The notes below the pieces were generated by a model that saw nothing but the letters and a program-made list of their open reading frames with translations, was not told the DNA's origin and did no database searches. Shown in pieces: positions 41,435-64,000 of a stretch of 64,000 bases of DNA (its first letter is position 1; each line of letters begins with the position of its first letter). A program made the position numbers and the translations under genes. Source of the stretch: Planctomycetota bacterium (GTDB lineage Bacteria > Planctomycetota > PLA2); the NCBI GenBank assembly GCA_027297745.1, contig JAPUHK010000024.1:994-64993 (forward strand), read 5' to 3'.

Positions 41435-41629
41435 GTACGCACCTCCTGGCCCGAGCGGGGCTACCCATGGCCCATCGACCAGATGGGGCGCCCAGCCTTA
41501 GCCCGCTGCAACGCCCCGAATCTCGGGCCTGGGGCCGCTCCGGAGCGTCCCCGGCGCGCGCCGTAAACCGCTCGACGTGCCCTGCTCGTGCGGGATTTGA
41601 GGTAGATACGGAGCACCAGGAGGGTGCCC

Positions 41630-42979
41630 ATGAGCTACGACGTGATCGTTTTCGGGGCCGGCAACGCAAACGACGTGGTGCGCATGGCCGGGAAGGCGGG
41701 CCTGCGGGTGGCTGTGGTGGAGAAGGGGCCGCTCGGCGGCACCTGCGCCAACCGCGGCTGCATCCCCTCGAAGCTGATGATCGCGTACGCGGATCGCGCC
41801 GGCCAGGTGCGCTCTGCGGGCCGCTTCCACATAGAGGCGGAGCTGCGTTCGATCGACGGCGGCAAGATCATCGAGGAGACCTTCGGCTACACGCGCCGCT
41901 TCGACAAGCTGGTGGAGGACGGCTATCCGGAAGGCGTCGAAGTGCACCGCGGACACGGGACCTTCGTCGACAACCACACGGTCGCCGTCAACGGCACGGA
42001 GCTGCGCGGCGACAAGATCGTGCTGGCGACGGGCTCGCGCCCGCGCCGGCCCGACATCCCCGGGCTGCAGGGCACGCCGTACTGGACCAGCGACGAGGTG
42101 TTCGAGATGGAGCGCCTGCCGGCCTCGCTCACGATCGTCGGCGGCGGCTACATCGGCTGTGAGCTGAGCCACTTCTTCAACGGTGTGGGCGTCGAGACGA
42201 CCCTCCTGGTGCGCACCGAGCACCTCCTGGGCCGCGAGGACGAGGAGGCCTGCGCCGTCATGCAGAAGGGCTTCACAGAGCGCGTCCCGACACGCTTCAA
42301 CGTGTTCGTGGAGGCCGTGGCCCACGAAGACGGGAGCTTCCTGCTGACGCTCAGCGACGGGAGCGAGCACACCTCCGAGGCGCTGTTGTTCGCCATCGGC
42401 CGCATCCCCAACAGCGACCAGATCGCCATCGAGAACACGGACTTGAAGCCGAACGCGCATGGCTACGTCGAGTCCGACGACCACCTGCGCACATCGGTGC
42501 CGCACATCTATTCGCTGGGCGACGTGGCAGGGCGCTACTTCTTCACGCACACGTCCAGTTTCGAGGCGGCCTACCTCGGCCGGCAGATCGTCGAGGGGCT
42601 CGACGAGCCGATCGACTACGGGCCTGTAGGGCATGCAATCTTCACGTCGCCGGAGATCGCCGGCGTGGGGGCGACCGAGCAAGAGCTGAAGGAGCGCGGG
42701 GAGGACTACGTGGCGGCATCCGTGCCCTACTCGTCCTACACGAAGGGGCGCGCGCTCAAGGAAGAGCATGGGCTGTTCAAGCTCATCCTCGACCGCGAGG
42801 GCAAGATCCTCGGCTGCCACGTCGTCGGGCACGAGGCGTCGGTGCTTCTGCACGAGGTCTTGCCCGTGATGAAATGGCGCAACCACGTCAGCTCGATCAC
42901 GGACGTGATCCACGTGCACCCGTCGCTGCCGGAGATCGTGCGCGGCGCCGCGGGCAAGGCCGCGGCGCTGCTGAAGTAA
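41630..42979 (+). CDS. Class I pyridine nucleotide-disulfide oxidoreductase (dihydrolipoyl dehydrogenase / glutathione-mycothione reductase-like)
   Basis: VIVFGAGNA...GGTCANRGCIPSK (redox CxxxxC), IVGGGYIGCE and C-terminal HVHPSLPE. Confidence 0.9.
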   Translation: MSYDVIVFGAGNANDVVRMAGKAGLRVAVVEKGPLGGTCANRGCIPSKLMIAYADRAGQVRSAGRFHIEAELRSIDGGKIIEETFGYTRRFDKLVEDGYPEGVEVHRGHGTFVDNHTVAVNGTELRGDKIVLATGSRPRRPDIPGLQGTPYWTSDEVFEMERLPASLTIVGGGYIGCELSHFFNGVGVETTLLVRTEHLLGREDEEACAVMQKGFTERVPTRFNVFVEAVAHEDGSFLLTLSDGSEHTSEALLFAIGRIPNSDQIAIENTDLKPNAHGYVESDDHLRTSVPHIYSLGDVAGRYFFTHTSSFEAAYLGRQIVEGLDEPIDYGPVGHAIFTSPEIAGVGATEQELKERGEDYVAASVPYSSYTKGRALKEEHGLFKLILDREGKILGCHVVGHEASVLLHEVLPVMKWRNHVSSITDVIHVHPSLPEIVRGAAGKAAALLK

Positions 42980-46318: not shown

Positions 46319-46528
46319 TGGTGGTTGAACCTCCGTGTTGCACCTTGGCACGAAACCGTGCAGGGGCAAACCGGTTTACAGGGATGAAGCCTCTCTGTGG
46401 CCCGGATGTCCTCCAACGACACAGCTCCGGCCCGATTCGATACAGAAGGGACCTGGACCGATACACCGGAGCGGGACCCGGGCCTGGTCTACAATCACAG
46501 CGCCCGAAAACCCCGATCGGAGCCCGCC

Positions 46529-48169
46529 ATGTACCAAAACCGCATCCGCCCCCGGCACGGCGTAGGCCTCACGCTGCTGTGCCTCGCGCTCCTCGCCGCG
46601 CCCGTCTGGGCAACCTGTGGCGGCGGCGGCGGCGGCGGCCGCGGCGGCGCCGGGCAGGCCTACAAGACGAACTGGATGACCAGCTGGAAAAAGACGCTGT
46701 CGGACGCGGAGCTCAAGGAACAGGGCGTCCTGTTGTACTTCCAGCCCCGCAGCTCGTCGGAGCACCGCTTCTTCAAGACGAAGTGGCCCAACGACGTCTC
46801 CAAGGAGCGTTTCTTCTACAAGGTCCGCGGCACGAGCGAAGAGGCCGAGAAGATGCGCGCACAATACCGCGTGGAAGGGAAGAAGCACCACGTCTTCATC
46901 TGCGACTGGCACGGCAACGTGTTCAAGTCCTTCGCGACCACCGACCGCGCCAAGTTCCGGAGCGGCGCCCTGAAGGGTCCCCTGTACGGCATACAGCGCT
47001 CGGTCAAGCGCTTGCGCAAGAAGATCGCGCAGAACACCGCGAAGGCTGAAAAGGCCCTCGAAAGGAAATCGTACCCCACGGCCATCAAGGCGCTGAAGTC
47101 CGCGCAGGAGTACACGGGCTATCCCGAGGTCGAGCAGTCCAAGAAGCTGTGGCAGCAGTTGGAGAAGGAGGGCCTGAGCCAGTTGGAAGCCGCCCTGCAA
47201 CTCGAGAATCCCGAGCGCCGCAAGAAGCTCAACGCGCTCAAGCGGACCTTCAAGCGGACGGGCGTCGAGAAGGCGGCGGCCAAGGCGCTGGCCAAGGAGA
47301 ACGGCAAGCGCGAAGCCTCCGTGCCGGCGGAGCGCGCGCATGACGACGCCACGATGAAGGCGCCGTCGCTGGCGGAGCGCATCTGCGCCGAGCTGTTTGT
47401 GGACGACGGCTCCACCACGATCGCGGAGCTCGTCGACGCGGCCGTCCAGGAGGGCCTGCGGCACGAGAACGCGGCTCGCTACGAGGACGCGCTGCGCGCC
47501 TACGAGCGTGCCGTGCGGCTCGATCCCAAGGACCCCGTCCCGCTCGTCTACCTCGGTGAGCTGCACCGGCATCACATGGGGCGCTGGGATGACGCCGAGC
47601 GGGCCTTCCGCCGCGTGCTGGAGCTCGACGGTCAGGACCACGCGGTCGCCGTCGCGCTGCACGGCATCGGCAAGATGACCATCTGGCGCGGCGACAACGA
47701 AGCCGGCCTGAAGCTGCTAGCGGGCTCCATCGAGCGTTCGCCGACGGCGTTGTGCTACCGCAACCTGGCCGTCTACTGGAACACCGAGGGCGACGCCGGG
47801 AAGGCCTTCGCCTACGCCACCAAGGCCTACGAGCTCGAGCCGCGTGACTCCTACAACCAGGTCTTCTACTCCGTGTACCTGCTCCTGAACGGGCGTGGGG
47901 AGCAGGCGCAGCGCCTCATGGCCGCCGCCGAGTTCGATCCGTCCATGTCGTACAACTACGCCTGCTATCACGCTGTGCGCGGGGATCGCGACCAGGTGTT
48001 GGCGTACCTGAAGCGCCACTTCTACGAGTACGAGAAGTACGCCGCGGTACGTTCCTTCGAGATGGCGGAGGCGCGCATGGACAGCTTCTTCGCGCGCTGG
48101 TTGGAGGATCCGGAGTTCAAGCAGGTCACGAAGCTTGCCGGCAAGACGCCCTGGCTGCGCGAGGGCTAG
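46529..48169 (+). CDS. Secreted (possibly lipo-) protein with TPR repeats
   Basis: MYQNRIRPRHGVGLTLLCLALLAAPVWATCGGGGGGG. The C-terminal half is TPR-like (YEDALRAYERAVRLDPKDPVPLVYLGELH...). Confidence 0.8.
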   Translation: MYQNRIRPRHGVGLTLLCLALLAAPVWATCGGGGGGGRGGAGQAYKTNWMTSWKKTLSDAELKEQGVLLYFQPRSSSEHRFFKTKWPNDVSKERFFYKVRGTSEEAEKMRAQYRVEGKKHHVFICDWHGNVFKSFATTDRAKFRSGALKGPLYGIQRSVKRLRKKIAQNTAKAEKALERKSYPTAIKALKSAQEYTGYPEVEQSKKLWQQLEKEGLSQLEAALQLENPERRKKLNALKRTFKRTGVEKAAAKALAKENGKREASVPAERAHDDATMKAPSLAERICAELFVDDGSTTIAELVDAAVQEGLRHENAARYEDALRAYERAVRLDPKDPVPLVYLGELHRHHMGRWDDAERAFRRVLELDGQDHAVAVALHGIGKMTIWRGDNEAGLKLLAGSIERSPTALCYRNLAVYWNTEGDAGKAFAYATKAYELEPRDSYNQVFYSVYLLLNGRGEQAQRLMAAAEFDPSMSYNYACYHAVRGDRDQVLAYLKRHFYEYEKYAAVRSFEMAEARMDSFFARWLEDPEFKQVTKLAGKTPWLREG

Positions 48170-51401: not shown

Positions 51402-52745
51402 TCAGGGCTGCCGCGGAGCGCGCATCGCGCGCCCGTGCTGGTGCAGCGTCAGGGCCACGACCCTGCCGTCCTGCTTGTGGAAGGTGATGCGCGCGTCGAC
51501 CACTTTGTAGAAGAAGCTCGTCTCCGACTCGGGAAAGACCTGCAGCTTGGCCTGGCCTGTGGCCTGCACCATGAGCTTGTCGCCCTCGCGGGTGACCGTC
51601 AGCACAAACTGCGGCGTGAGCGCGTACGCGCCCGCGTAGGCGTCGTAGATCTTCGGGTCGACCTGCGCCTCCCGGGGCGGCTGCTCTCCACGCAGCAGCT
51701 TCATGATCCGCCGGCCGACGCTGTCGATCACGCCGTCGGCCGTGTTGCTGAGAATGACGAGAGCGTGCCCGCGCTGCGTGTCCACCGCTGCGAAGGAGTG
51801 GTAGCCGCCGGTCTGGCCGTTGTGCCTACGGTAGCCGAGCGGGTCGATGTGCCAGCCGAGCCCGAGCTTTTGCGCCTGGGGCGCGCCGGGCTTGTGGTGT
51901 ACCTTGCGCGCCAGCGCCAGGGCCGCGTGCATGCCGCCGTCCTTCTCTGCCAGATTCGCCTGCAGGAACGCCAGCATGTCGCGCACGGAGGAGCGAATGC
52001 CGCCCGCTCCGGCCAGCGTGGGGATGTCCCAGGTGGAGGACGGCACCCCGTTGGCCCGGTAGGGGGGTGCGAGCCGCTTGCGCATGTCCTGCGTGTACAC
52101 GATGCGCGTGCTCGGCATACCGAGCGGCTCCGTGATGCGCTCGACGAGCAGCGCCTCGTAGCTCTTGCCCGCCTTGCGCGCCAGCGCATGCCCTAGCAGG
52201 CCTGCGCCGAGGTTGCTATACGCGCTCTTCAGCCCTGGAGCGCGCTTCAAGGTGCAGCCGGACAAGAAGGCGTACATCAGCGCCGGCGTGTAGTCCGCGT
52301 AGGGATTGTTGGGATCCTTCGGGGCGAAGTTGCTCGGCATGCGCGGCAAGGCCGAGGTGTGCGTGGAGAGATCGACCAACGTGATCTTGCGCCCCCCGTG
52401 CGCCGGCACCTGCACCGTGTCGGGCAAGAGCTGCTCGAGCGGCTGGTCGAGGCGGACGCTGCCGTCCTGCACGAGCGCCGCCAACAGCACGCCCGTAAAG
52501 ACCTTGCTGATCGATCCGATCTCGTAGACGGTGTCCTGATCGGGCACGTCTTTCTCGCCCACTGTGACCTTGCCGTACCCGCGCACCCACGGCTGCTTGT
52601 CGCGCGCCTCGATCACGCCGATCGTCATCCCCACGACGCTGCCGCTCCCGATTACCGGCTGCGCGAGGGCGTCGACCTCCCGCGCGAGGTCTTTGGCGGC
52701 CGCGCACGGCAGGGCCACGAGCAAGATGAGCAGAACGCCTCTCAT
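51402..52745 (-). CDS. Serine hydrolase of the class C beta-lactamase / PBP4* family
   Basis: Signal peptide MRGVLLILLVALPCAAA. Motifs SISK (SxxK) and YSN are present, with a C-terminal extra domain. Confidence 0.85.
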   Translation of the reverse strand: MRGVLLILLVALPCAAAKDLAREVDALAQPVIGSGSVVGMTIGVIEARDKQPWVRGYGKVTVGEKDVPDQDTVYEIGSISKVFTGVLLAALVQDGSVRLDQPLEQLLPDTVQVPAHGGRKITLVDLSTHTSALPRMPSNFAPKDPNNPYADYTPALMYAFLSGCTLKRAPGLKSAYSNLGAGLLGHALARKAGKSYEALLVERITEPLGMPSTRIVYTQDMRKRLAPPYRANGVPSSTWDIPTLAGAGGIRSSVRDMLAFLQANLAEKDGGMHAALALARKVHHKPGAPQAQKLGLGWHIDPLGYRRHNGQTGGYHSFAAVDTQRGHALVILSNTADGVIDSVGRRIMKLLRGEQPPREAQVDPKIYDAYAGAYALTPQFVLTVTREGDKLMVQATGQAKLQVFPESETSFFYKVVDARITFHKQDGRVVALTLHQHGRAMRAPRQP

Positions 52746-52990
52746 GACCACCCTCCAAGGGTAATCGACGGCGCGCCCACGCACGACGCTGCCGTCTGCG
52801 CACGCGCGCAAGCGCGTAGGCGCACGGTGGCGATTGGACGAATGCGTGCAGTCGTTCCAACCACGCCGCCCGTGCGCCGGATCCCCGTTGGAGCGCTCGA
52901 ACCTTATCGTGCACCGCGAGCGGCACCCGTGTTGCGTATGCGGAGGCGGGCTAAGGGACGAGCGGAGCCTCAACCGAGAGAGGAGAGCTC

Positions 52991-56630: not shown

Positions 56631-57278
56631 TCAATTGACGGCCGGCACCCATGCCGTGGGCACGTGGCACTCGTGGCAGTTGTCGACGAAGCCCAGCGGG
56701 ATGTGGGGGGGATTGGTGGTGTTGTTCCGGTCGTCCACGTGGCACGTGACGCACTCGGTGTCCACGGGGATGAAGTTGCCGACCCGCGCGCCCGGGTGGC
56801 AGCGGTAGCAGGCCACCAACGTGTGGGCGCCGAGCAGCGGGAAGCGCGTCCGGTCGTGGAGCGCGATCTGGCCCACGGGGCGCCAGGTCTGCTCGGTGTG
56901 GCAGCGGGTGCAGTCCTTGTCCAGGTCGCCGTAGTGGTAGTCCTCGTGGCAGCCCGTGCAGCCCTGCGAGTGGAAGATCGCCACAGGCCCGCGGTCGTTG
57001 TGGCAACGCAGACATTGCGCCTGCTCATGAGCCCCGTTGAGAGCGAAGCCGGTGTTGGCCAGGTGGTTGAACTTGAAGTCGCTCTTGAGCTTGTTCCAGT
57101 CACCGCCCACGTGGCACAGCTGACAGTCGGCCGGGAACGAGTCGTGCGGCAGGACCGGTCCGAAACCCGCCCACCAACGGTGCTGCTTGCCGGTCAGCGG
57201 GCGCGCGGCGGCGCAGGCCAACAGGATCGCGCTCAGGAGCGCGATCGCGATCGGGCGTCTACGGAATCGGAATCGCAT
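56631..57278 (-). CDS. Periplasmic multiheme c-type cytochrome (7 CXXCH)
   Basis: MRFRFRRRPIAIALLSAILLACAAA is a signal peptide and LLAC could be a lipobox. The motifs are CQLCH, CLRCH, CTGCH, CTRCH, CYRCH, CVTCH and CHECH. Confidence 0.9.
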   Translation of the reverse strand: MRFRFRRRPIAIALLSAILLACAAARPLTGKQHRWWAGFGPVLPHDSFPADCQLCHVGGDWNKLKSDFKFNHLANTGFALNGAHEQAQCLRCHNDRGPVAIFHSQGCTGCHEDYHYGDLDKDCTRCHTEQTWRPVGQIALHDRTRFPLLGAHTLVACYRCHPGARVGNFIPVDTECVTCHVDDRNNTTNPPHIPLGFVDNCHECHVPTAWVPAVN

Positions 57279-57290
57279 GGGTATCAACTC

Positions 57291-59081
57291 TCAAAAGCCC
57301 TTCTGCCAGGTGAACCCAGCGGACCACGAGATCTCCTTGTCGTAGGCGACGACCTCCCCGAACACGTAGACGTCCCAGTTTCCGACGCGATAGACGCTCA
57401 AGCTGCCGCGCAGACGTTGCTGCACCAGGTCGTCCCGGTTCGCGTTCAGGCCGTGGATGTGGTGGAAGGCAAGCTCGTACATCAGGTCCCACCTGCCCTT
57501 GGCCGTCGTGCGGCCGTAGAGGAGACGCACGCCCGCCACGCTCTCGTACTGGCCGATGTTGCCGTAGCCGACGAGGTCCAGGTGCGCCTGGCGCCGCAGC
57601 GTCTGTTCGACGCCGATGTCGAACGCGCCGCCGCTGCCGTCCTCGTCGACCCAGCCGCTGACGTGCCCGTGCAGGCGCCTGTCGGCGCCCAGCATCTTCC
57701 AGAGGTTCAGCGCCAGCCGGTCGAACTCGTTGTTCGCCAGGTCGGCGGCGAAGACGATGGGACGGTATTCGCCCTCCCGCAAGAGCTCTGCGAACGCCCA
57801 GTGCTGATAGAGGAACTGGATGCCGCCCCGGGCGAAGGTGCGGTTCAGGGAGGCGATGGCCTGCGTGATCTCTATGCCTGAGCCCTTGATCGGGTCGCTG
57901 GCGGAGTAGAAGTCGACCCAGATCGTGGCGTGGAAGGCCCAGCCGTCCACCGGCAGAACGTGCATGCGGGCCACCAGGAGGTCGCGGTCCGGGTTGCCGT
58001 TGTTCCAGGTCTTCTGGAAGCCGCCGGCGATCAGGAAACGCTCGTTCGGGTCCTGCACCCACTCGTACCAGCCCGCCAGCTGGAAGTCCTCGAAGGTGTC
58101 GAAGTCGTCGTTCAGCTCCGGCATGTAGCCCATGCTCACGCCGTAGCGGTGCCCGTTGTCGCCCCTATGCGCCCACTGCAGGCCGTCCAGCACGCCGAAC
58201 TCGGGCATGCCGTGCTGCAGGAAGCGGCCGACCTCCCAGCGGTTGCTGTTGAAGCGATTTCCGCCGCGGAAATAGGAGAGGCGGCGCAGCAGGAAGTCCC
58301 CCGTGAGGTCGCTGTTGTACTTGTAGTTCGCCAGGTAGGCCGCCTCCGCGTTGAGGCGGAAGCCGCCGCCCTTGCCGAAGGGATTCGAGTAGGTCAGGTC
58401 CGTGCCGACTCGCAAGTAGGAGCTGGTGAAGTCGCTGTCGGGGTTGTCCGTCACCGCGGCGCTCACATAGGTGAAGCCGGCGAGCCCCTTCCGGCGGTTC
58501 TTGGGGCGCACGGCTCCGGTCTCGGCCAGCAGCGACTTGCTCGTGGACCACTCCTCGTCCTTGTTCTTCCAGGGCGGGTGTTCCGGAGTCTCGCCCTCGG
58601 TGCCCGCGGCAGCAGCGCCTCCGGCTGCCGCTGCACCTGCGGCGACTCCGGCGCCGTCTTTGTCCTTGTCTTCCGGCTCGCCTTCGCCTTCCGGCTTGGT
58701 GCCTTCCCCTTCAGGCTGTCCGCCTTCGGGTTCCGGTTGCAGTTCGGGCTCCGGCTCAGGATCGGGTTGCGTGAAGCGCGAAGCCGGGATCAGCACTTCG
58801 CCGCGCGTGCCCGCTTCGGGAACGAACTTGGCGTCGCGCATCTCGACCACCGCGCTGCGCGCGCGGACCGAGAGCACGGTTCCGGAATAGGTGCCGCCCT
58901 GGCGCGGGAAGAAGGACACGACGTCGCCGATGGCGAGGCCGTCCCGCTTGCCGCGGTCGATGGTGACCGAGGCTCCGGGTCCCGCGGAGCTCACGCGCAG
59001 GGACACACGTTCCAGCTCTTCCTGCGCCCATGCGGACACGCAGGTCCACAGGACCATGGAGAGCAGAATTACAAGCCTCAC
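57291..59081 (-). CDS. Putative outer-membrane beta-barrel protein with periplasmic N-domain and acidic linker
   Basis: The GTG start overlaps the upstream stop (GTGA). The signal peptide is (M)RLVILLSMVLWTCVSAWA. A PE-rich linker (PDPEPEPELQPEPEGGQPEGEG) follows. About 400 aa show alternating amphipathic strands, ending ...SWSAGFTWQKGF with a terminal Phe. Confidence 0.6.
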   Translation of the reverse strand: MRLVILLSMVLWTCVSAWAQEELERVSLRVSSAGPGASVTIDRGKRDGLAIGDVVSFFPRQGGTYSGTVLSVRARSAVVEMRDAKFVPEAGTRGEVLIPASRFTQPDPEPEPELQPEPEGGQPEGEGTKPEGEGEPEDKDKDGAGVAAGAAAAGGAAAAGTEGETPEHPPWKNKDEEWSTSKSLLAETGAVRPKNRRKGLAGFTYVSAAVTDNPDSDFTSSYLRVGTDLTYSNPFGKGGGFRLNAEAAYLANYKYNSDLTGDFLLRRLSYFRGGNRFNSNRWEVGRFLQHGMPEFGVLDGLQWAHRGDNGHRYGVSMGYMPELNDDFDTFEDFQLAGWYEWVQDPNERFLIAGGFQKTWNNGNPDRDLLVARMHVLPVDGWAFHATIWVDFYSASDPIKGSGIEITQAIASLNRTFARGGIQFLYQHWAFAELLREGEYRPIVFAADLANNEFDRLALNLWKMLGADRRLHGHVSGWVDEDGSGGAFDIGVEQTLRRQAHLDLVGYGNIGQYESVAGVRLLYGRTTAKGRWDLMYELAFHHIHGLNANRDDLVQQRLRGSLSVYRVGNWDVYVFGEVVAYDKEISWSAGFTWQKGF

Positions 59082-61156
59082 CGCTTTTCTTCCTTCGCGC
59101 CCCGGCGGAACGGGTTCTCGTCCTCGCCGTGGCAATCGGCGCACCTGCCCCCCATCGGGCGATAGCGGATGAAGTCTTTACCGTTCTCGCGAACTGGTAA
59201 ATGGCAGGCGGAGCAGGCCAGGGGGGTGTGGGCCTCCCCGAGCTGGAAGCTCGAGTCCAGGTCGTGGCGGAAGCTCAGGTCCGTGAAGGCCGCAGCGGCA
59301 GGCCTGTGGCAGCTCCGGCAGTCGGTCAGCCCCTTCACCTCGAACTGCCCGGCATGGGAATCCTGGTGGCAATCCGAGCAGTGGCCGCCCTTGGCGCGGG
59401 CCCAGGTGCGCCCGGCCTCGTCCGGCTCCCGCAGGGGGGTGTGGCAGTCGGCGCAGTCGACTTTCTTGTGCTGGCCGACCAGGGCGAAGCCGGTCCAGCG
59501 CTTGTGGTCGAAGCCGTTCGGGAAGGTCCGGAACGAGCTCTCGCCGTGGCAGCGCTCGCAGCCGGTCTTGCCCTTGAAGGTGCGCGGCATGCCGGGCTTG
59601 TCGAAGTCGTTCTTGTGCGGATCGATGTGGCACGTGTCGCACCCCTCGTACACGCCGAAGCGATCCGAGACGCGGCCGAACGTGCGGCCGAAGCGGTCGG
59701 GTTCCGGGGTGCGCGGGTGGCAGGCCTCGCACTCCTCCTGCGCGTGGGCCGCGACTAGCGGGAACCCCGTCCACGGGCCGTGGTCGAAGGCCTCGGGCGG
59801 GATGTCCCGGAAGTCCGTGGCCAGGTGGCAGTCGGCGCAGCGGCCGTACGTGCTCGCCGATGTCTCCGGCGCGAACTGCTCGAAGAACCCCTCGTGCGGG
59901 TCCGGATGGCATCCGGCGCACTTGACGGGAGTCCCGTGGAACACGCGCGGGCTGCCCTCGATGGGCGCCGCCTCGTGGCACGCGTTGCAGTCGGTCTCGA
60001 TATGGCTGCCGATCAAAGGCAGGGACGTCTCCGCGTGCATCTCGACGCTGAAGATGTGCGGCTCGAAGTAGAGCGTCCCGTGGCAGGCGACGCACGCGCC
60101 GCTCTTGAACGAACCCTCGCCGAACTGGCCGCCGTGGGGATCCTCGTGGCACGCGGCGCAGTCGTCGGCCGCGCGGGCCGGGTAGCGGGCCTTGAAGTCC
60201 TCGTGGTTGAGATCGTGGCAGTCCGCGCAGCCCACTTCGTGATGCGGATCGGTGAGCGAGAACCCGGAGCTTTCGTGCTGCTCCACGGTCATCTCCCCGA
60301 GCTGCCTGTCGTTCCAGGTCGTGTGCTCCGCGCGATGGCACACGTCACAGGCGGCGCCGGTGGGGCGGGAGACCTGCAACGCGACGCCGTCGACGAAACC
60401 CTCGGCGTGCGAGTTCGCGTGGCAGTCCACGCACATGCGCGCGGCCGGGGCGCGATTCTCGCCTAGCGCCTCGAGCGTGTAGGGCTCGTTCGCGTGGCAG
60501 GAGCGGCACTCCATGTTGCTGTGGCCGCCGATCAGCTGCAGGTAGTCCTCGTGGCCGCGCGACTCCAGCTCCGCCCAGGCGCGTTGCCCGTGGCACTGGA
60601 CGCAGCTCAGCGCCGCGTAGCGGCCCTCGTGCACATCCCCGTGGCACGTCGTGCACTCCTGGTCGAGCCCGATGTAGCGCGTCGCGCCCTCCGGCAGGAT
60701 CTCGATGTTCACCTGCAGGTGGCACTCGTTGCAGGCCAGCTCGATGTGCCGGCCGTCCATGGGGAAGCGGATCATGTTGTGGTCGAACTCCGCCGGGTCG
60801 GGCACGCCCGCGGCCGCGAAGCTCTGCCGGTTGACGATGGCGAAGCCCGCGCCGTGGTGCTCGCTGTGGCACAACGCGCACAGCATGGCCTTGTTCCCAA
60901 TCACGCCGTGGAGTCCGTTTCCGGCGGCGATCTGCGCGTCGATCGTCTTGTGGCACTCGAGACACGCATCCGACATGCTCAGGAACAATCCGCCGTGGCA
61001 CGCGGAGCAGCTCTCGCCGCGGTTCAGGTCGCCCACGCGCGCGTGGACGGCCGTGACCTCTCCCGGTGACTTGCGCCCGAGGTGGCCGATCACGACGTAG
61101 AGCACCGCCGCAGCCGAGGCCAGGCCGATCCAGAGGCCGGGACGTCCCAGCTTCAA
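59078..61156 (-). CDS. Membrane-anchored multiheme c-type cytochrome (23 CXXCH)
   Basis: N-terminal anchor GLWIGLASAAAVLYVVIGHL. I counted 23 CXXCH motifs in 692 aa. A recurring module is F-x-H...F-x-L-x-G-x-H-x4-5-CXXCH. The putative TTG start overlaps the upstream stop (TTGA). Confidence 0.85.
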   Translation of the reverse strand: MKLGRPGLWIGLASAAAVLYVVIGHLGRKSPGEVTAVHARVGDLNRGESCSACHGGLFLSMSDACLECHKTIDAQIAAGNGLHGVIGNKAMLCALCHSEHHGAGFAIVNRQSFAAAGVPDPAEFDHNMIRFPMDGRHIELACNECHLQVNIEILPEGATRYIGLDQECTTCHGDVHEGRYAALSCVQCHGQRAWAELESRGHEDYLQLIGGHSNMECRSCHANEPYTLEALGENRAPAARMCVDCHANSHAEGFVDGVALQVSRPTGAACDVCHRAEHTTWNDRQLGEMTVEQHESSGFSLTDPHHEVGCADCHDLNHEDFKARYPARAADDCAACHEDPHGGQFGEGSFKSGACVACHGTLYFEPHIFSVEMHAETSLPLIGSHIETDCNACHEAAPIEGSPRVFHGTPVKCAGCHPDPHEGFFEQFAPETSASTYGRCADCHLATDFRDIPPEAFDHGPWTGFPLVAAHAQEECEACHPRTPEPDRFGRTFGRVSDRFGVYEGCDTCHIDPHKNDFDKPGMPRTFKGKTGCERCHGESSFRTFPNGFDHKRWTGFALVGQHKKVDCADCHTPLREPDEAGRTWARAKGGHCSDCHQDSHAGQFEVKGLTDCRSCHRPAAAAFTDLSFRHDLDSSFQLGEAHTPLACSACHLPVRENGKDFIRYRPMGGRCADCHGEDENPFRRGAKEEKR

Positions 61157-63378
61157 CTTTTGCCCCCGAAGAAGAAGGGGTAGTACGCGAGCGCGTAGAC
61201 GATGTGGATTACCACCAGCAGCACCATCAGCGCCGCCATCCAGCGGTGCAACCAGCGCCAGGTGCCGAGCACCGCGCGCAGGTCCTCATAGTGCGCCGCC
61301 ATGAGCGCCGTGCGGTGTGCCTTGCGCGCGAGCTGCATCGTTTCCTTGATCTGCTCCTCGTCGATGCCCTCTTCACGCCCTTCGTCCTCCAGGCGTGTGA
61401 GCAAGCGCTTCAAGCCGCCCCGGCCGGTCAGCATGGACAGCACGCGCCCAAGGAACCCCGAGCCCCATTGCTTCTTCTCGATCAGCTCATCCACCGCGCT
61501 GCGCGCCCGTTCGCGGTACTCCCGTTGGCCCTGGTCCCACTCCTCGGACATGCGGCCGAGGCGGGCCTTGACCTCCTGCAGCTCCAGCTCGCGTCCGTTC
61601 GCGGCGCGCGGCACGCAGGCGTAGAAGTAGCGTCCGATGGCGCCGGTGACCAACAGCACCGCCAGCGCCCAAAAGGCGTGCCCCGCGACGGTGTTGCCGG
61701 GCGCCATGGCGCCGTGCAGCGTCGCCAGCAAGAGCGCCAGGATGCCCGTGGCGACGTGGCTCGTCATCCAGATCTGCAGGGAGCCGACGTTGAGCCGGAA
61801 GCGCGGCGAACGCCGCACCAGATAAAGGAGGTTCACGAGGATCAGCGCGGTCGCGCCGATGCCCAGCCACAGGCCGAGGCCGAGGCCCGGGCGCAGCAGC
61901 GCATGCTTCGGGTGCGCGGCGCGCGCGGAGGCCGGCAGGCCGTAGTAGTCCGCGTGCACCATGACCCAGACCAACGCGGCCAGCGAGAGTGTGAAGCCGA
62001 TGCCGAGCGCGTGGACCAGGCCCGTGCCCTGCTCGCCGAGCTGGGGCGCCGCCTTGCGCAGCGACGGGTCGAAGGACACGCCCGAGCGTTCGAGCAGCTC
62101 CAGCGGCGCGCTGCCGCCCGCCATCACGAACACCTCGTCGTTCGGCAACGTGCGCGTCGCCGTGCCGTAGCCGCTCTGCACCGTGAGCTCGACCGAGTCC
62201 GGACGGATCGCCCGCACTTCGCTGTTGAACAGGACCTCGAGCTTGCCCTCGCGCAGGCATTCGTCCAGGCGCTCCTGGTTCTTGGGTCGAATGCGGAAGA
62301 AGCTCTCCTTGCGGTACGAGAGCGTCACCTGGTTCCCCGGTTGCTCCGCGAGACCCATGGCCGCCTCGACCGCGCTGTCGCCGCCGCCGACGACCAACGT
62401 GCGCCGGTGCTGGTACGAGTGGGCGTCCAGCAGGCTGTAGGCCACCTTGGACAGGTCTTCGCCTTCCACGCCGAGCTTGCGCGGCGAGCCGCGGCGGCCC
62501 ACCGCCAGACAGACGTTGCGCGCCGTGTAACTGCCGGTCTTGGTGCGCACGACGTAATTGCCGTCGTCGTCCCGGCTAAGACCCACGAACGTCTCCTGGG
62601 AGCGGATCGGCAGCTGCTGCTCCTCCGCGATGTGCGCCCACAGCTCGACCAGCTCTTCCTTCGTGTAACTGGACTTCAGGCGGCCGTAGAGCGGCAGGTC
62701 GACCGGCTGGCTCATGATCAGCTTGCGCCGCGGGTACTTCGCGACCGTGCCGCCGGGCCCGCTCTCCTGGTCCAGCGTCACGAACTTCAGGCCGTGGCGC
62801 TTGGCCTCGAGCGAACACGCCAGGCCGGCGGGGCCGGCGCCGACCACGCACAGGTCCAGCGTGCCGTTGGGGTTGGGCTCGTGCTCCAGGCGCCGCGCGA
62901 CTTCGCCCGCTACGGCCGTTCCGTGGTCGACGGCGGTCTTGATCAGCGAGTGCGCGGTCACCTCACCCGCGAGGAACAGCCCGGGCGAGCCCACGGCCTC
63001 GAGCTGTTCGGTCAGGACCGGGATGTCCCGGCGCTCGGCGATGTCGCTCAGCGTGACCTTGATCGCGCCGACGGGGCACTCGCGCTCACACAGGGCATGG
63101 CCGACGCAGCGCGCGCCGTGCACGACCATGGCCTGGCCGTGCACGAGCTTCAGCACCTGGTCCTCGGGACAGACGTCGACGCACGTGCCGCAGCCCAGGC
63201 AGCGGGACAGATCGACGACGGGTTGGGCGAGCTGGGCCTTGTCACTCCCCTGACGGACCGCCTGCTCACGGTCGCCCAGCGCGCGGCGCATGCGCCGGAG
63301 CTCCAGGCGCCGCGCGATCGCCACCATGAGGGATAGGCCTAGGGCGACTACGACTCCAATAAGGAGGGGCCAACTCAT
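61153..63378 (-). CDS. Inner-membrane fusion protein: TM anchor + ferredoxin-type FeS domain + FAD/NAD(P)-binding oxidoreductase + C-terminal 5-TM domain with two H-x13-H pairs
   Basis: GGAG Shine-Dalgarno. FeS motifs C60LGCGTCVDVCP and C91VGHALCERECP. Dinucleotide folds VVGAGPAGLA and VVGGGDSAVEAA. His541-x13-His555 and His711-x13-His725 lie in hydrophobic helices. Confidence 0.85.
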   Translation of the reverse strand: MSWPLLIGVVVALGLSLMVAIARRLELRRMRRALGDREQAVRQGSDKAQLAQPVVDLSRCLGCGTCVDVCPEDQVLKLVHGQAMVVHGARCVGHALCERECPVGAIKVTLSDIAERRDIPVLTEQLEAVGSPGLFLAGEVTAHSLIKTAVDHGTAVAGEVARRLEHEPNPNGTLDLCVVGAGPAGLACSLEAKRHGLKFVTLDQESGPGGTVAKYPRRKLIMSQPVDLPLYGRLKSSYTKEELVELWAHIAEEQQLPIRSQETFVGLSRDDDGNYVVRTKTGSYTARNVCLAVGRRGSPRKLGVEGEDLSKVAYSLLDAHSYQHRRTLVVGGGDSAVEAAMGLAEQPGNQVTLSYRKESFFRIRPKNQERLDECLREGKLEVLFNSEVRAIRPDSVELTVQSGYGTATRTLPNDEVFVMAGGSAPLELLERSGVSFDPSLRKAAPQLGEQGTGLVHALGIGFTLSLAALVWVMVHADYYGLPASARAAHPKHALLRPGLGLGLWLGIGATALILVNLLYLVRRSPRFRLNVGSLQIWMTSHVATGILALLLATLHGAMAPGNTVAGHAFWALAVLLVTGAIGRYFYACVPRAANGRELELQEVKARLGRMSEEWDQGQREYRERARSAVDELIEKKQWGSGFLGRVLSMLTGRGGLKRLLTRLEDEGREEGIDEEQIKETMQLARKAHRTALMAAHYEDLRAVLGTWRWLHRWMAALMVLLVVIHIVYALAYYPFFFGGKS

Positions 63379-63435: not shown

Positions 63436-64000
63436 CTACTTGCCGCCGGCGCTTCGCGCCCTGAGCTCCCGGTCCCGGGAGCTGCCGCTGACGTTCATGG
63501 ACGTGGCCTTGCGTCGCGTCTCGCCCTGGCTGAAGGCCGGGGCAGGCGGGCCCTCGACGGGCTGGGCGGCGCTCACGGGCAGGGCGGCCGACTCGACATA
63601 CGCGCGAGCAGCCTTCAGGCAGGCGTCGAACTCGCCGTCGAGATCAGAGACCCGCTTGGCCAGCGCGCGCGCTTCGCCCTGGATCTCGGACACGGCCACG
63701 GGGTTGAGGTCGTTGCCCAGGAAGAGCGCGTGGTCGCGCAGGCTGTTGTTGACCGCATCATAGGACGCCAGGGCGGGCTCCGCGGCCGCGACGATGGCGT
63801 GGTAACGCTCGCGAGTCTCCACCAAGCGGTTGCGGCTGCGCTGGCGCAGCTCCACGCTGCTGATGTCCTTGAGGTCATCGGCCCACTGATCGAAGACCGG
63901 ATCGCTCGAGTCCTTCATGTTCTCGATGCTGTCCCGAAGCTTTTCGGCCTGCTCCTCGGAGTTCTCGATGGCCGTCATGAACTCCCCGTAGGCCGTAACC
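63436..64000 (-). CDS. DUF2959-like protein (5' end probably beyond the window)
   Basis: WADDLKDISSVELRQRSRNRLVETRERYHAIV...NNSLRDHALFLGNDLNPVAVSEIQGE. The frame stays open upstream of the listed Met to the window edge. Confidence 0.6.
   Translation of the reverse strand, partial: VTAYGEFMTAIENSEEQAEKLRDSIENMKDSSDPVFDQWADDLKDISSVELRQRSRNRLVETRERYHAIVAAAEPALASYDAVNNSLRDHALFLGNDLNPVAVSEIQGEARALAKRVSDLDGEFDACLKAARAYVESAALPVSAAQPVEGPPAPAFSQGETRRKATSMNVSGSSRDRELRARSAGGK

Follow-up and report, generated by a model that had tools for sequence, protein, structure and literature searches.

A Planctomycetota iron-sulfur flavoprotein fused to a PCC3-type membrane module: a proposed NAD(P)H-to-multihaem-cytochrome gate

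We examined a gene for a 741-amino-acid fusion protein in a stretch of DNA from a Planctomycetota bacterium (GenBank assembly GCA_027297745.1, contig JAPUHK010000024.1, positions 994 to 64,993; this entire stretch of 64,000 nucleotides is called the window below). The protein joins a membrane-anchored ferredoxin-like domain and a flavoprotein with two dinucleotide-binding folds to a five-helix membrane module, and its gene is followed by genes for a 23-haem c-type cytochrome, a haem-free protein, and cytochromes with seven and eleven haem motifs (Table 1). We propose that the fusion protein is a quinone-independent gate, similar in logic to the NADPH oxidases (NOX), that passes electrons from NAD(P)H across the membrane to the multihaem cytochrome and forms the entry point of a conduit resembling the porin-cytochrome cluster (PCC) type known as PCC3. 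We assign this reading a probability of roughly 0.6.

A first-pass annotation, made from the sequence alone, had listed the motifs of this protein and suggested that it moves electrons from the cytoplasm to the neighbouring cytochrome through two helices bearing paired H-x13-H histidines. All of the listed motifs are found in the open reading frame at the residues given. The first 22 residues are hydrophobic and are followed by RRLELRRMRR at residues 23–32. The first iron-sulfur (FeS) motif is C60-x2-C63-x2-C66-x3-C70-P and the second is C91-x5-C97-x3-C101-P. Hydropathy places the C-terminal helices at approximately 452–476, 497–522, 536–560, 563–589 and 709–735, and 13 residues intervene in each of the pairs H541/H555 and H711/H725. 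To this description we add a charged, soluble insert of 117 residues that separates the fourth of these helices from the fifth. The count of 23 CXXCH motifs in the adjacent cytochrome also stands. Its placement 4 nt downstream does not, as the TTG start of the cytochrome gene overlaps the TGA stop of the fusion gene, and the two share the four nucleotides TTGA at 61153–61156.

Table 1. Features of the fusion gene and its neighbours in the window (residues are those of the 741-amino-acid protein; K+R and D+E are counts of charged residues; TM, transmembrane).
Feature	Coordinates	Strand	Basis or remarks
Whole fusion gene	61153..63378	-	ATG start, 741 aa; TM anchor, ferredoxin-like domain, two-dinucleotide-binding flavoprotein and PCC3-type membrane module predicted to hold two haems
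N-terminal TM helix, residues 1-22, then Arg-rich stretch	63313..63378	-	Hydropathy; 9 K+R in residues 23-52
Ferredoxin-like two-cluster domain, residues 53-110	63049..63222	-	Fer4 family matches, E ~1e-8
Displaced C-terminal FAD-binding element, residues 125-166 (GLFLAGE139V strand and helix)	62881..63006	-	N-terminal to first GxGxxG
FAD and NAD(P)H Rossmann domains, residues 173-440	62059..62862	-	GAGPAG 180-185, GGGDSA 331-336, R356, no redox-active CxxC
PCC3/PCC4-type inner-membrane module, residues 445-741 (297 aa)	61156..62046	-	Five TM helices and cytoplasmic helical insert; motifs, hydropathy, structure model
Third module helix, residues 536-560, W537-x3-H541-x13-H555	61699..61773	-	W537, H541 and H555 100% conserved in 112 sequences
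Fourth module helix, residues 564-589, T578-G579-x2-G582-R583, i.e. (S/T)GxxG	61612..61689	-	G579 100%, G582 99%, R583 98%
Helical insert, predicted cytoplasmic, residues 590-706	61261..61611	-	22 K+R, 22 D+E; at NOX D-loop position
Fifth module helix, residues 707-735, W707-x3-H711-x13-H725	61174..61260	-	W707 100%, H711 99%, H725 100%
23-haem c-type cytochrome, N-terminal hydrophobic anchor	59078..61156	-	23 CXXCH in 692 aa; TTGA overlap
617-aa haem-free protein, putative outer-membrane beta-barrel	57291..59144	-	Signal-peptide-like N-terminus, C-terminal ...TWQKGF; start codon uncertain
7-haem cytochrome c	56631..57287	-	Haem motif count; lipoprotein-type leader (LLAC)
11-haem cytochrome c, 946 aa	53567..56407	-	Lipoprotein-type leader (VTGC); weak ExtM match
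DUF2959 gene directly upstream of fusion	63436..63978	-	PF11172, E 6e-22; match starts at profile position 63

Membrane proteins of this kind are already known from the PCC3 and PCC4 clusters as defined by He et al. (2017; PMC5566968). These clusters contain a conserved, unannotated inner-membrane protein (IMP) of about 300 amino acids with five transmembrane helices, of which the fourth has an SGxxG motif and the third and fifth each have W-x3-H-x13-H. The authors likened the IMP to the FRE/NOX ferric-reductase domain and to cytochrome b, and predicted that it holds two b haems. Besides the IMP, PCC3 clusters encode a porin and two kinds of multihaem cytochrome, one periplasmic with 21–27 haems and one extracellular (PMC5566968). 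The membrane module in the window has the length of the IMP, its five helices, both W-x3-H-x13-H motifs, an (S/T)GxxG motif and the same cluster layout, in which the porin is inferred. These motifs and the gene context indicate that the module belongs to the PCC3/PCC4 IMP family. The main structural point of the first-pass annotation is therefore right but not new: the conserved histidines and weak Pfam matches to Ferric_reduct, DUF4405 and cytochrome b561 support the comparison with NOX and cytochrome b, which had already been published in 2017 (PMC5566968).

The protein has more than 120 full-length homologues at 60–95% identity. The four paired histidines are invariant in an alignment of 41 of the full-length homologues and 99–100% conserved among 111 diverse representatives of the module sharing 22–60% identity; the percentages in Table 1 are from the latter alignment, and two further family alignments agree with it. 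P590, Y479, Y519 and R522 are conserved to a similar degree as the motif residues. Not all of the remaining histidines of the module are conserved (H456 3%, H475 10%, H567 13%). On helix four the consensus of stand-alone members is LSGFVGRY, where the window protein has T578-G-A-I-G582. An exhaustive HMMER scan with the membrane module returned 1478 cluster representatives at E<=1e-3, and of those spanning the query from end to end, about half stand alone as proteins of roughly 290 amino acids (270–320).

Searched against Pfam, the module alone gives sub-threshold matches on its last helix to Ferric_reduct (E 6e-4) and DUF4405 (E 1e-3). Among 98 aligned family members, 25 match DUF4405, 23 match Ferric_reduct (best 1.3e-5) and 18 match Ni_hydr_CYTB at E<=0.01, three families that belong to one Pfam clan of two-haem cytochromes. 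Purified DUF4405 protein binds haem b through four central histidines (PMC11334425). A structure model of the module alone, built from the 98-sequence alignment, has a pLDDT of 90.9 and a pTM of 0.84. The structures nearest to this model are a designed two-haem bundle, cytochrome b561, CybB, cytochrome b/b6, STEAP1, FdnI, the NOX5 transmembrane domain and SpNOX. A Foldseek search of the module against the PDB gave nothing below E 0.2, and a family-profile search of PDB sequences returned coiled-coil noise from the insert only. The modelled fold would resemble the dihaem b cytochromes only distantly.

The insert forms four helices in the model (model positions 156–170, 175–191, 198–225 and 230–251, pLDDT mostly above 84). 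It is also present in stand-alone members, where its sequence is poorly conserved, and the FeS/flavoprotein part may dock on it. Lysine and arginine make up 9 of the 30 residues after the first transmembrane helix, 3 of 13 in the loop 523–535 and 22 of 117 in the insert, as against 3 of 20 in the loop 477–496, 0 of 8 in the loop 556–563 and 1 of 6 in the C-terminal tail. By these counts the insert and the FeS/flavin part would both be cytoplasmic; for the latter this is the side given in the first-pass annotation, and the protein has no Tat-type leader. With both regions cytoplasmic, helices three and five would run parallel from inside to outside, and so H541 and H711 would lie level with one another near the cytoplasm, with H555 and H725 about 20 Å further out. 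H541/H711 are the predicted ligands of a haem b on the cytoplasmic side and H555/H725 those of a haem b on the periplasmic side.

The soluble part begins with the N-terminal transmembrane helix, which an AlphaFold2 (AF2) model extends as a single long helix over residues 2–42. This helix is kept in the separate flavoproteins of Emticicia oligotrophica and of the metagenomic contig L093 (see below), and it is predicted to anchor the FeS domain at the cytoplasmic face of the membrane. The Pfam dicluster match to Fer4 covers residues 53–107. An arrangement of eight cysteines in two CxxCxxCxxxCP motifs, as for 2x[4Fe-4S], is not found: the second motif has three cysteines (91, 97 and 101) and the position of its canonical second cysteine, 94, is occupied by histidine, but the Pfam dicluster models still match. 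Of the 41 homologues, 24 have H at position 94, 10 have V and 7 have I, and this variation rules out His94 as a conserved fourth cluster ligand. By analogy with 7Fe ferredoxins, the domain probably holds one [4Fe-4S] cluster and one three-cysteine cluster, the latter likely [3Fe-4S]. In the Emticicia orthologue (WP_015031197.1, L090 7764–9086) the second cysteine is absent from both ferredoxin motifs, CIGSGACVAACP and CVGHGACFHACP, which leaves six cysteines for two clusters, an unusual ligand set.

Between the ferredoxin-like domain and the first Rossmann motif lies an element that in thioredoxin reductase (TrxR) is found near the C-terminus. Residues 131–155 align by pairwise BLAST with residues 280–304 of E. 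coli TrxR. In addition, positions 403–442 of the 443-position Amino_oxidase profile match residues 120–160. The AF2 model has a strand at 134–136 and a helix at 146–166 (pLDDT 64–89 in 10-residue blocks over residues 121–170), and F135, L136, A137, G138 and E139 are invariant among the 41 homologues. A PDB search using residues 110–172 alone gave no match. Judged from the two C-terminal alignments, the FAD domain is circularly permuted relative to TrxR, and the chain can consequently pass from the flavoprotein straight into the membrane.

The remainder of the flavoprotein matches the two-Rossmann family Pyr_redox_3 (residues 178–437, E 3.4e-45). The nearest curated families are YpdA (TIGR04018; 150 bits against a cut-off of 339.9) and TrxR (TIGR01292; 71.5 bits against 343.45). 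Among solved structures, YpdA/Bdr and the TrxR-like ferredoxin-NADP+ reductases (FNR) come nearest in sequence and fold searches; a fold search with the whole protein matched the flavoprotein part only (TrxR, YpdA, FNR). The window protein shares with TrxR-like FNR and YpdA/Bdr (PDB 2zbw, 3ab1, 6gar, 7a7b) the fold with two dinucleotide-binding sites, the GxGxxG and GGGxxA motifs, an arginine at the 2'-phosphate position, and the lack of a TrxR-type CxxC. It differs from them in having the C-terminal GD-motif strand and its helix ahead of the first Rossmann motif, in the added transmembrane helix and ferredoxin-like domain, and in being fused or coupled to a membrane cytochrome.

Homologues carry names in JGI such as "thioredoxin reductase" and "PreT", and together with the nearest structures these would make the protein a membrane-anchored thioredoxin reductase, another disulfide reductase, or a subunit of dihydropyrimidine dehydrogenase. 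We consider this vanishingly improbable, and the annotated disulfide-reductase function is effectively refuted. The names are functionally wrong because the scores fall far below the family cut-offs, beyond the FeS motif the 741-amino-acid protein has no redox-active CxxC, and C188 and C290, invariant among planctomycete homologues, are replaced in the Emticicia orthologue, which rules them out as catalytic thiols. The conserved cysteine that YpdA has in its FAD motif is also absent, the motif here being GAGPAG, and the Emticicia orthologue shows no conserved cysteine at YpdA-like positions. The soluble part is best described, from its sequence, as an NAD(P)H:iron-sulfur flavoprotein that performs no thiol chemistry. 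The invariant R356 and K/R357 fall, by eye, at what is presumably the 2'-phosphate site of the TrxR HRRD motif, and for this reason NADPH is the more likely donor.

The two halves of the fusion protein are encoded separately in other bacteria. On plasmid pEMTOL02 of Emticicia oligotrophica (Bacteroidota) we found a 281-residue IMP that is 24% identical to the membrane module (E 3e-18). Next to it is the gene for a 440-residue protein, annotated "NAD(P)-binding domain-containing protein", that is 39% identical to residues 5–436 of the window protein (E 2e-101) and has the transmembrane helix, a CVGH motif, the permuted element as GIFIAGE, and GGGDSA. The gene order is IMP, flavoprotein, 23-haem cytochrome, 40-haem cytochrome, and the Emticicia and window 23-haem proteins align end to end with 28.5% identity over 684 residues (E 1.6e-77). 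Two metagenomic contigs, L093 and L094, carry a flavoprotein gene and an IMP gene in the order of the fusion, followed by a multihaem cytochrome gene, and in L093 the flavoprotein and IMP genes overlap by 4 nt. Read from these alignments and gene orders, the window protein arose through fusion of two genes that other bacteria keep side by side as separate units.

A different flavoprotein occupies the same place in other loci. Seven more loci with a stand-alone IMP were inspected; they were taken from among the top profile matches, lie on long contigs and may represent only a few clades. One of the IMPs has a Vicinamibacterales source name. In all seven, the IMP gene lies between an upstream gene for a protein of about 450 residues and a downstream cytochrome gene with 10 to at least 94 haem motifs. 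The upstream proteins consist of FAD_binding_6, NAD_binding_1 and a C-terminal plant-type Fer2 domain (Fer2 being present in all but the L083 gene call), and these FNR-like partners also touch the NAD_binding_6 model. Six of the seven loci continue with an MtrB_PioB porin gene or an unannotated gene for 370–450 residues; in the seventh, L086, the sequence ends within the cytochrome gene. The FNR-like partners (loci L081–L089, for example L081 5649–6998) begin with a membrane anchor of about 75 residues and 2–3 helices that contains the conserved histidine motifs TT[IL]H and H..WF.ACE. Such helices may serve to complete the bundle formed by the IMP, or may hold an additional cofactor.

At all of the stand-alone loci inspected, then, the IMP gene adjoins one for a flavoprotein of NAD(P)H type that carries an FeS domain and is predicted to be tethered to the membrane, and these flavoproteins have two unrelated folds. 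In Planctomycetota the flavoprotein and the IMP have merged into one polypeptide. The NOX-like logic suggested by the first-pass annotation is partly supported, and the best available argument for it is that two unrelated NAD(P)H-type flavoprotein/FeS modules are attached to, or adjoin, the same membrane module.

This pairing also bears on the possibility that the module is coupled to quinones. The dihaem domain could exchange electrons with the menaquinone pool, as CybB, FdnI and cytochrome b do, with a flavoprotein that is NDH-2-like or feeds the quinone site, and the cytochromes would then receive electrons derived from quinol. He et al. proposed exchange with the quinone pool for this same family (PMC5566968), the conserved loop 477–497 (Y478, Y479, R486, H492) could form a quinol pocket, and PMC12525009 reports ubiquinone in the related protein MsrQ. 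However, a quinol dehydrogenase needs no dedicated FeS-containing NAD(P)H flavoprotein, yet one with either of two folds adjoins the IMP at each stand-alone locus examined and is fused to it here. FeS clusters are moreover one-electron wires suited to feeding a haem, and no known quinone-site motif was identified in analyses that included no search aimed at such motifs. We regard quinone coupling as rather unlikely, and a direct NAD(P)H-fed gate as the better account of the fusion protein.

The gene arrangement around the fusion is well conserved. Using a profile made from fused homologues, which retrieves fused members only, we scanned a collection with one genome per GTDB species and obtained 178 confirmed matches. 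The best 80 of these 178 loci are nearly all from metagenome-assembled genomes of Planctomycetota and include the cultured Saltatorellus ferox Poly30. A gene with 20–26 haem motifs (mostly 23) lies immediately downstream in 66 of the 68 loci with enough downstream sequence, so that the link to a multihaem cytochrome made in the first-pass annotation is very strong. Where at least 8 kb of downstream sequence is available, a 7-haem gene follows further on in 47 of 50 loci and an 11-haem gene in 37 of 50. By tblastn, the putative porin gene is found on the same strand in 69 of the 80 loci and the upstream DUF2959 gene in 61. The core order in Planctomycetota is thus the IMP fusion, 23-haem cytochrome, putative porin, 7-haem cytochrome and 11-haem cytochrome.

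A shorter form of the module occurs in another setting. Plasmids of Methylophaga and Sphingobium encode an FNR-like/Fer2 protein, an IMP of about 240 residues, a 7-haem cytochrome and a DUF1622 protein. In Methylophaga a gene with FAD_binding_6, NAD_binding_1 and Fer2 stands beside the IMP gene, and in Sphingobium an unannotated open reading frame containing Fer2 is found in the same place; a multihaem cytochrome gene comes next in both. He et al. (PMC5566968) list the counterpart of the short form in their Supplementary Table 6, with an untyped "other redox protein". These genes lie in copper/heavy-metal resistance islands of conjugative plasmids (Sphingobium fuliginis pSF1, L091; Methylophaga pinxianii, L092; and others), and this suggests a role of the short-form subfamily in periplasmic metal redox chemistry.

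The same gate could accordingly have a protective role at the periplasm or cell surface in Planctomycetota, reducing toxic metals or oxidants, or could serve reductive iron acquisition. Besides the resistance islands, the repair and defence functions of the relatives MsrQ and NOX (PMC12525009, PMC5676040) are in keeping with this. Saltatorellus ferox, moreover, is an aerobic isolate. The operon in the window argues otherwise, as no resistance genes adjoin it and it has a full set for the periplasm and outer membrane (a 23-haem cytochrome, a putative porin, and 7- and 11-haem lipoproteins) that is typical of outward-reaching conduits. For the window protein we consider a protective role quite improbable.

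From the observed domain content, conservation, gene fusion and adjacency, synteny and fold class, we infer haem binding and the occupancy of the other cofactors, the identity of the donor, the outward direction of flow and the absence of a quinone step. The cytoplasmic TrxR-fold flavoprotein would oxidize NAD(P)H, more likely NADPH, and its FAD would split the hydride into single electrons. These would pass to the two FeS clusters of the ferredoxin-like domain, held at the membrane by the N-terminal helix, then to the haem b of H541/H711 near the cytoplasmic face, and across about 20 Å of membrane to the haem b of H555/H725. The exit would be the first haem of the membrane-anchored 23-haem cytochrome, the predicted periplasm-spanning acceptor of the module. 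From there electrons may continue through the putative porin and the 7-haem protein to the 11-haem cytochrome, the predicted terminal reductase at the cell surface, and finally to an extracellular oxidant, for example iron or manganese oxides or humics. Such outward flow would be an electron sink that regenerates NAD(P)+.

The chain might instead run inward and reduce NAD(P)+, with electrons entering the cytochromes from Fe(II), a cathode, a partner cell or another extracellular or periplasmic donor and passing on by way of the b haems. Chains of haem, FeS and flavin are reversible in principle, and PCC3 was first found in Fe(II) oxidizers and discussed there as an oxidation pathway (including in PMC5566968). 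Against this are considerations of general bioenergetics, as reduction of NAD(P)+ (about -320 mV) by donors at the level of Fe(II) is strongly uphill, and electrons moving inward would oppose the inside-negative membrane potential, with no coupling-ion module present. Electron flow outward from NAD(P)H is strongly downhill, and on these grounds the outward direction is favoured. The hosts Saltatorellus ferox and Emticicia oligotrophica are also heterotrophs and not lithotrophs. We think inward uptake very unlikely.

Several points weigh against the outward, quinone-independent gate. The authors who defined the family proposed exchange with the quinone pool (PMC5566968); later papers repeat their description of the IMP, and a 2025 preprint states that PCC3 is functionally unverified. 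All Pfam matches of the membrane module are below the gathering thresholds, with Ferric_reduct (PF01794) at 20.3–20.6 bits against 28 and on the last helix only. The model of the full-length protein is of moderate quality (pLDDT 72, pTM 0.50), and the seven loci with FNR-like partners come from the narrow sample noted above. Finally, no energy is conserved when NAD(P)H electrons are exported, and the benefit to the cell is therefore speculative.

The fusion protein can be compared with several known systems. NOX and ferric-reductase domain (FRD) proteins, among them bacterial SpNOX and CsNOX5, likewise take electrons from cytoplasmic NAD(P)H through a flavin and two stacked bis-histidine b haems to an acceptor outside, with the histidine pairs on the third and fifth transmembrane helices at a spacing of about 13 residues, and many relatives of the window module are paired with an FNR-like flavoprotein. 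In contrast to NOX proper, which has C-terminal FAD_binding_8 and NAD_binding_6 domains, the dehydrogenase here is N-terminal and has a TrxR-like, two-Rossmann fold (Pyr_redox_3), and two FeS clusters are predicted to link the flavin to the haem. Where NOX has six membrane helices the module has five, although the N-terminal helix of the fusion might supply the sixth, and it carries the 117-residue insert at the position of the D-loop. Its acceptor would be a multihaem cytochrome and not O2 or Fe3+, and the Pfam scores are sub-threshold. STEAP proteins are eukaryotic, have an F420-reductase-like domain, one haem and an FAD that bridges the membrane, lack FeS clusters, and reduce metal ions directly.

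MsrQ binds one haem b together with FMN, and PMC12525009 describes it as a flavohaemoprotein. In MsrQ(YedZ)-Fre and in the DUF4405, PepSY-like and FezC systems, a haem b membrane protein of the FRD clan carries electrons from a cytoplasmic flavin reductase to a periplasmic redox partner (PMC12525009; PMC11334425), and the four central histidines are the most conserved residues, as they are in the module described here. However, the partners are the molybdoenzyme MsrP or flavinylated proteins and not multihaem cytochromes, and these systems have neither an FeS domain nor a fusion. CymA, ImcH, CbcL and CbcBA hold the same position in their pathways, between the inner membrane and periplasmic multihaem cytochromes, but they are c-type or mixed b- and c-type cytochromes that oxidize menaquinol without an NAD(P)H flavoprotein, and they have no sequence relationship to the fusion protein. 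We propose that the fusion protein works like NOX/FRE, MsrQ-Fre and STEAP and is a member of none of these families.

The published model of PCC3/PCC4 couples the IMP to quinone and Fe(II) oxidation and leaves the "other redox protein" untyped. The window protein differs in that its IMP is the C-terminal half of a fusion with a membrane-anchored ferredoxin-like and FAD/NAD(P)H protein. In the open-access literature we found no account of the fusion, of Planctomycetota clusters, or of an NAD(P)H-linked PCC3 beyond He et al. (2017) and the papers that repeat it, and within that literature the fusion and the regular pairing of the IMP with NAD(P)H flavoproteins are new. A broader proposal is that PCC3-type conduits of several phyla bypass the quinone pool and are fed by a NOX-like NAD(P)H/FeS flavoprotein through the five-helix dihaem module; here we see the chances as evenly balanced.

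To our knowledge, every characterized pathway of extracellular electron transfer in Gram-negative bacteria starts with a quinol dehydrogenase (CymA, ImcH, CbcL or CbcBA). If the broader proposal is true, NAD(P)H would be discharged onto extracellular acceptors without quinones and without conserving energy, through a third kind of entry point distinct from both the quinol-based systems and the flavin systems of the Listeria type. In bioenergetic terms this would be a redox-balancing electron sink and not respiration. PCC3 could then no longer be read as a system for Fe(II) oxidation, and its clusters would take on another meaning in environmental genomics, where they are now used as putative markers of iron oxidation. 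The idea can be tested in cultured organisms, as the fused form is present in Saltatorellus ferox Poly30 and the split form on the plasmid of Emticicia oligotrophica DSM 17448, and as a single polypeptide the fusion lends itself to expression, spectroscopy and cryo-EM.

Several observations concern the neighbouring genes. The identification of the 617-residue protein as a porin or barrel is putative; it has no Pfam or NCBIfam match and no BLAST similarity to an MtrB_PioB protein, and as a porin it would represent a family not yet described. It consists of a small N-terminal domain followed by a low-complexity linker rich in proline, glutamate and glycine (about residues 127–165). The DUF2959 gene directly upstream of the fusion is a possible sixth member of the conserved cluster, and its N-terminus probably lies beyond the end of the window. 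In IMP-partner cytochromes from different phyla (the window, L081, L091, L093 and L094) the hydrophobic anchor is followed by SPGPL[ST]xxHA, which in the 23-haem protein of the window reads SPGEVTAVHA at about residues 30–39. We set this motif aside as a docking site for the IMP, as it may simply be a distal-histidine motif of the c7 type.

Three other genes in the window have no obvious link to the fusion protein. Two are on the plus strand and encode a lipoamide-dehydrogenase-like flavoprotein with Pyr_redox_2 and Pyr_redox_dim domains (41624–42979) and a TPR-repeat protein (46397–48169). The third, directly after the cytochrome operon on the minus strand (51402–52973), encodes a protein with a beta-lactamase fold and a DUF3471 domain.

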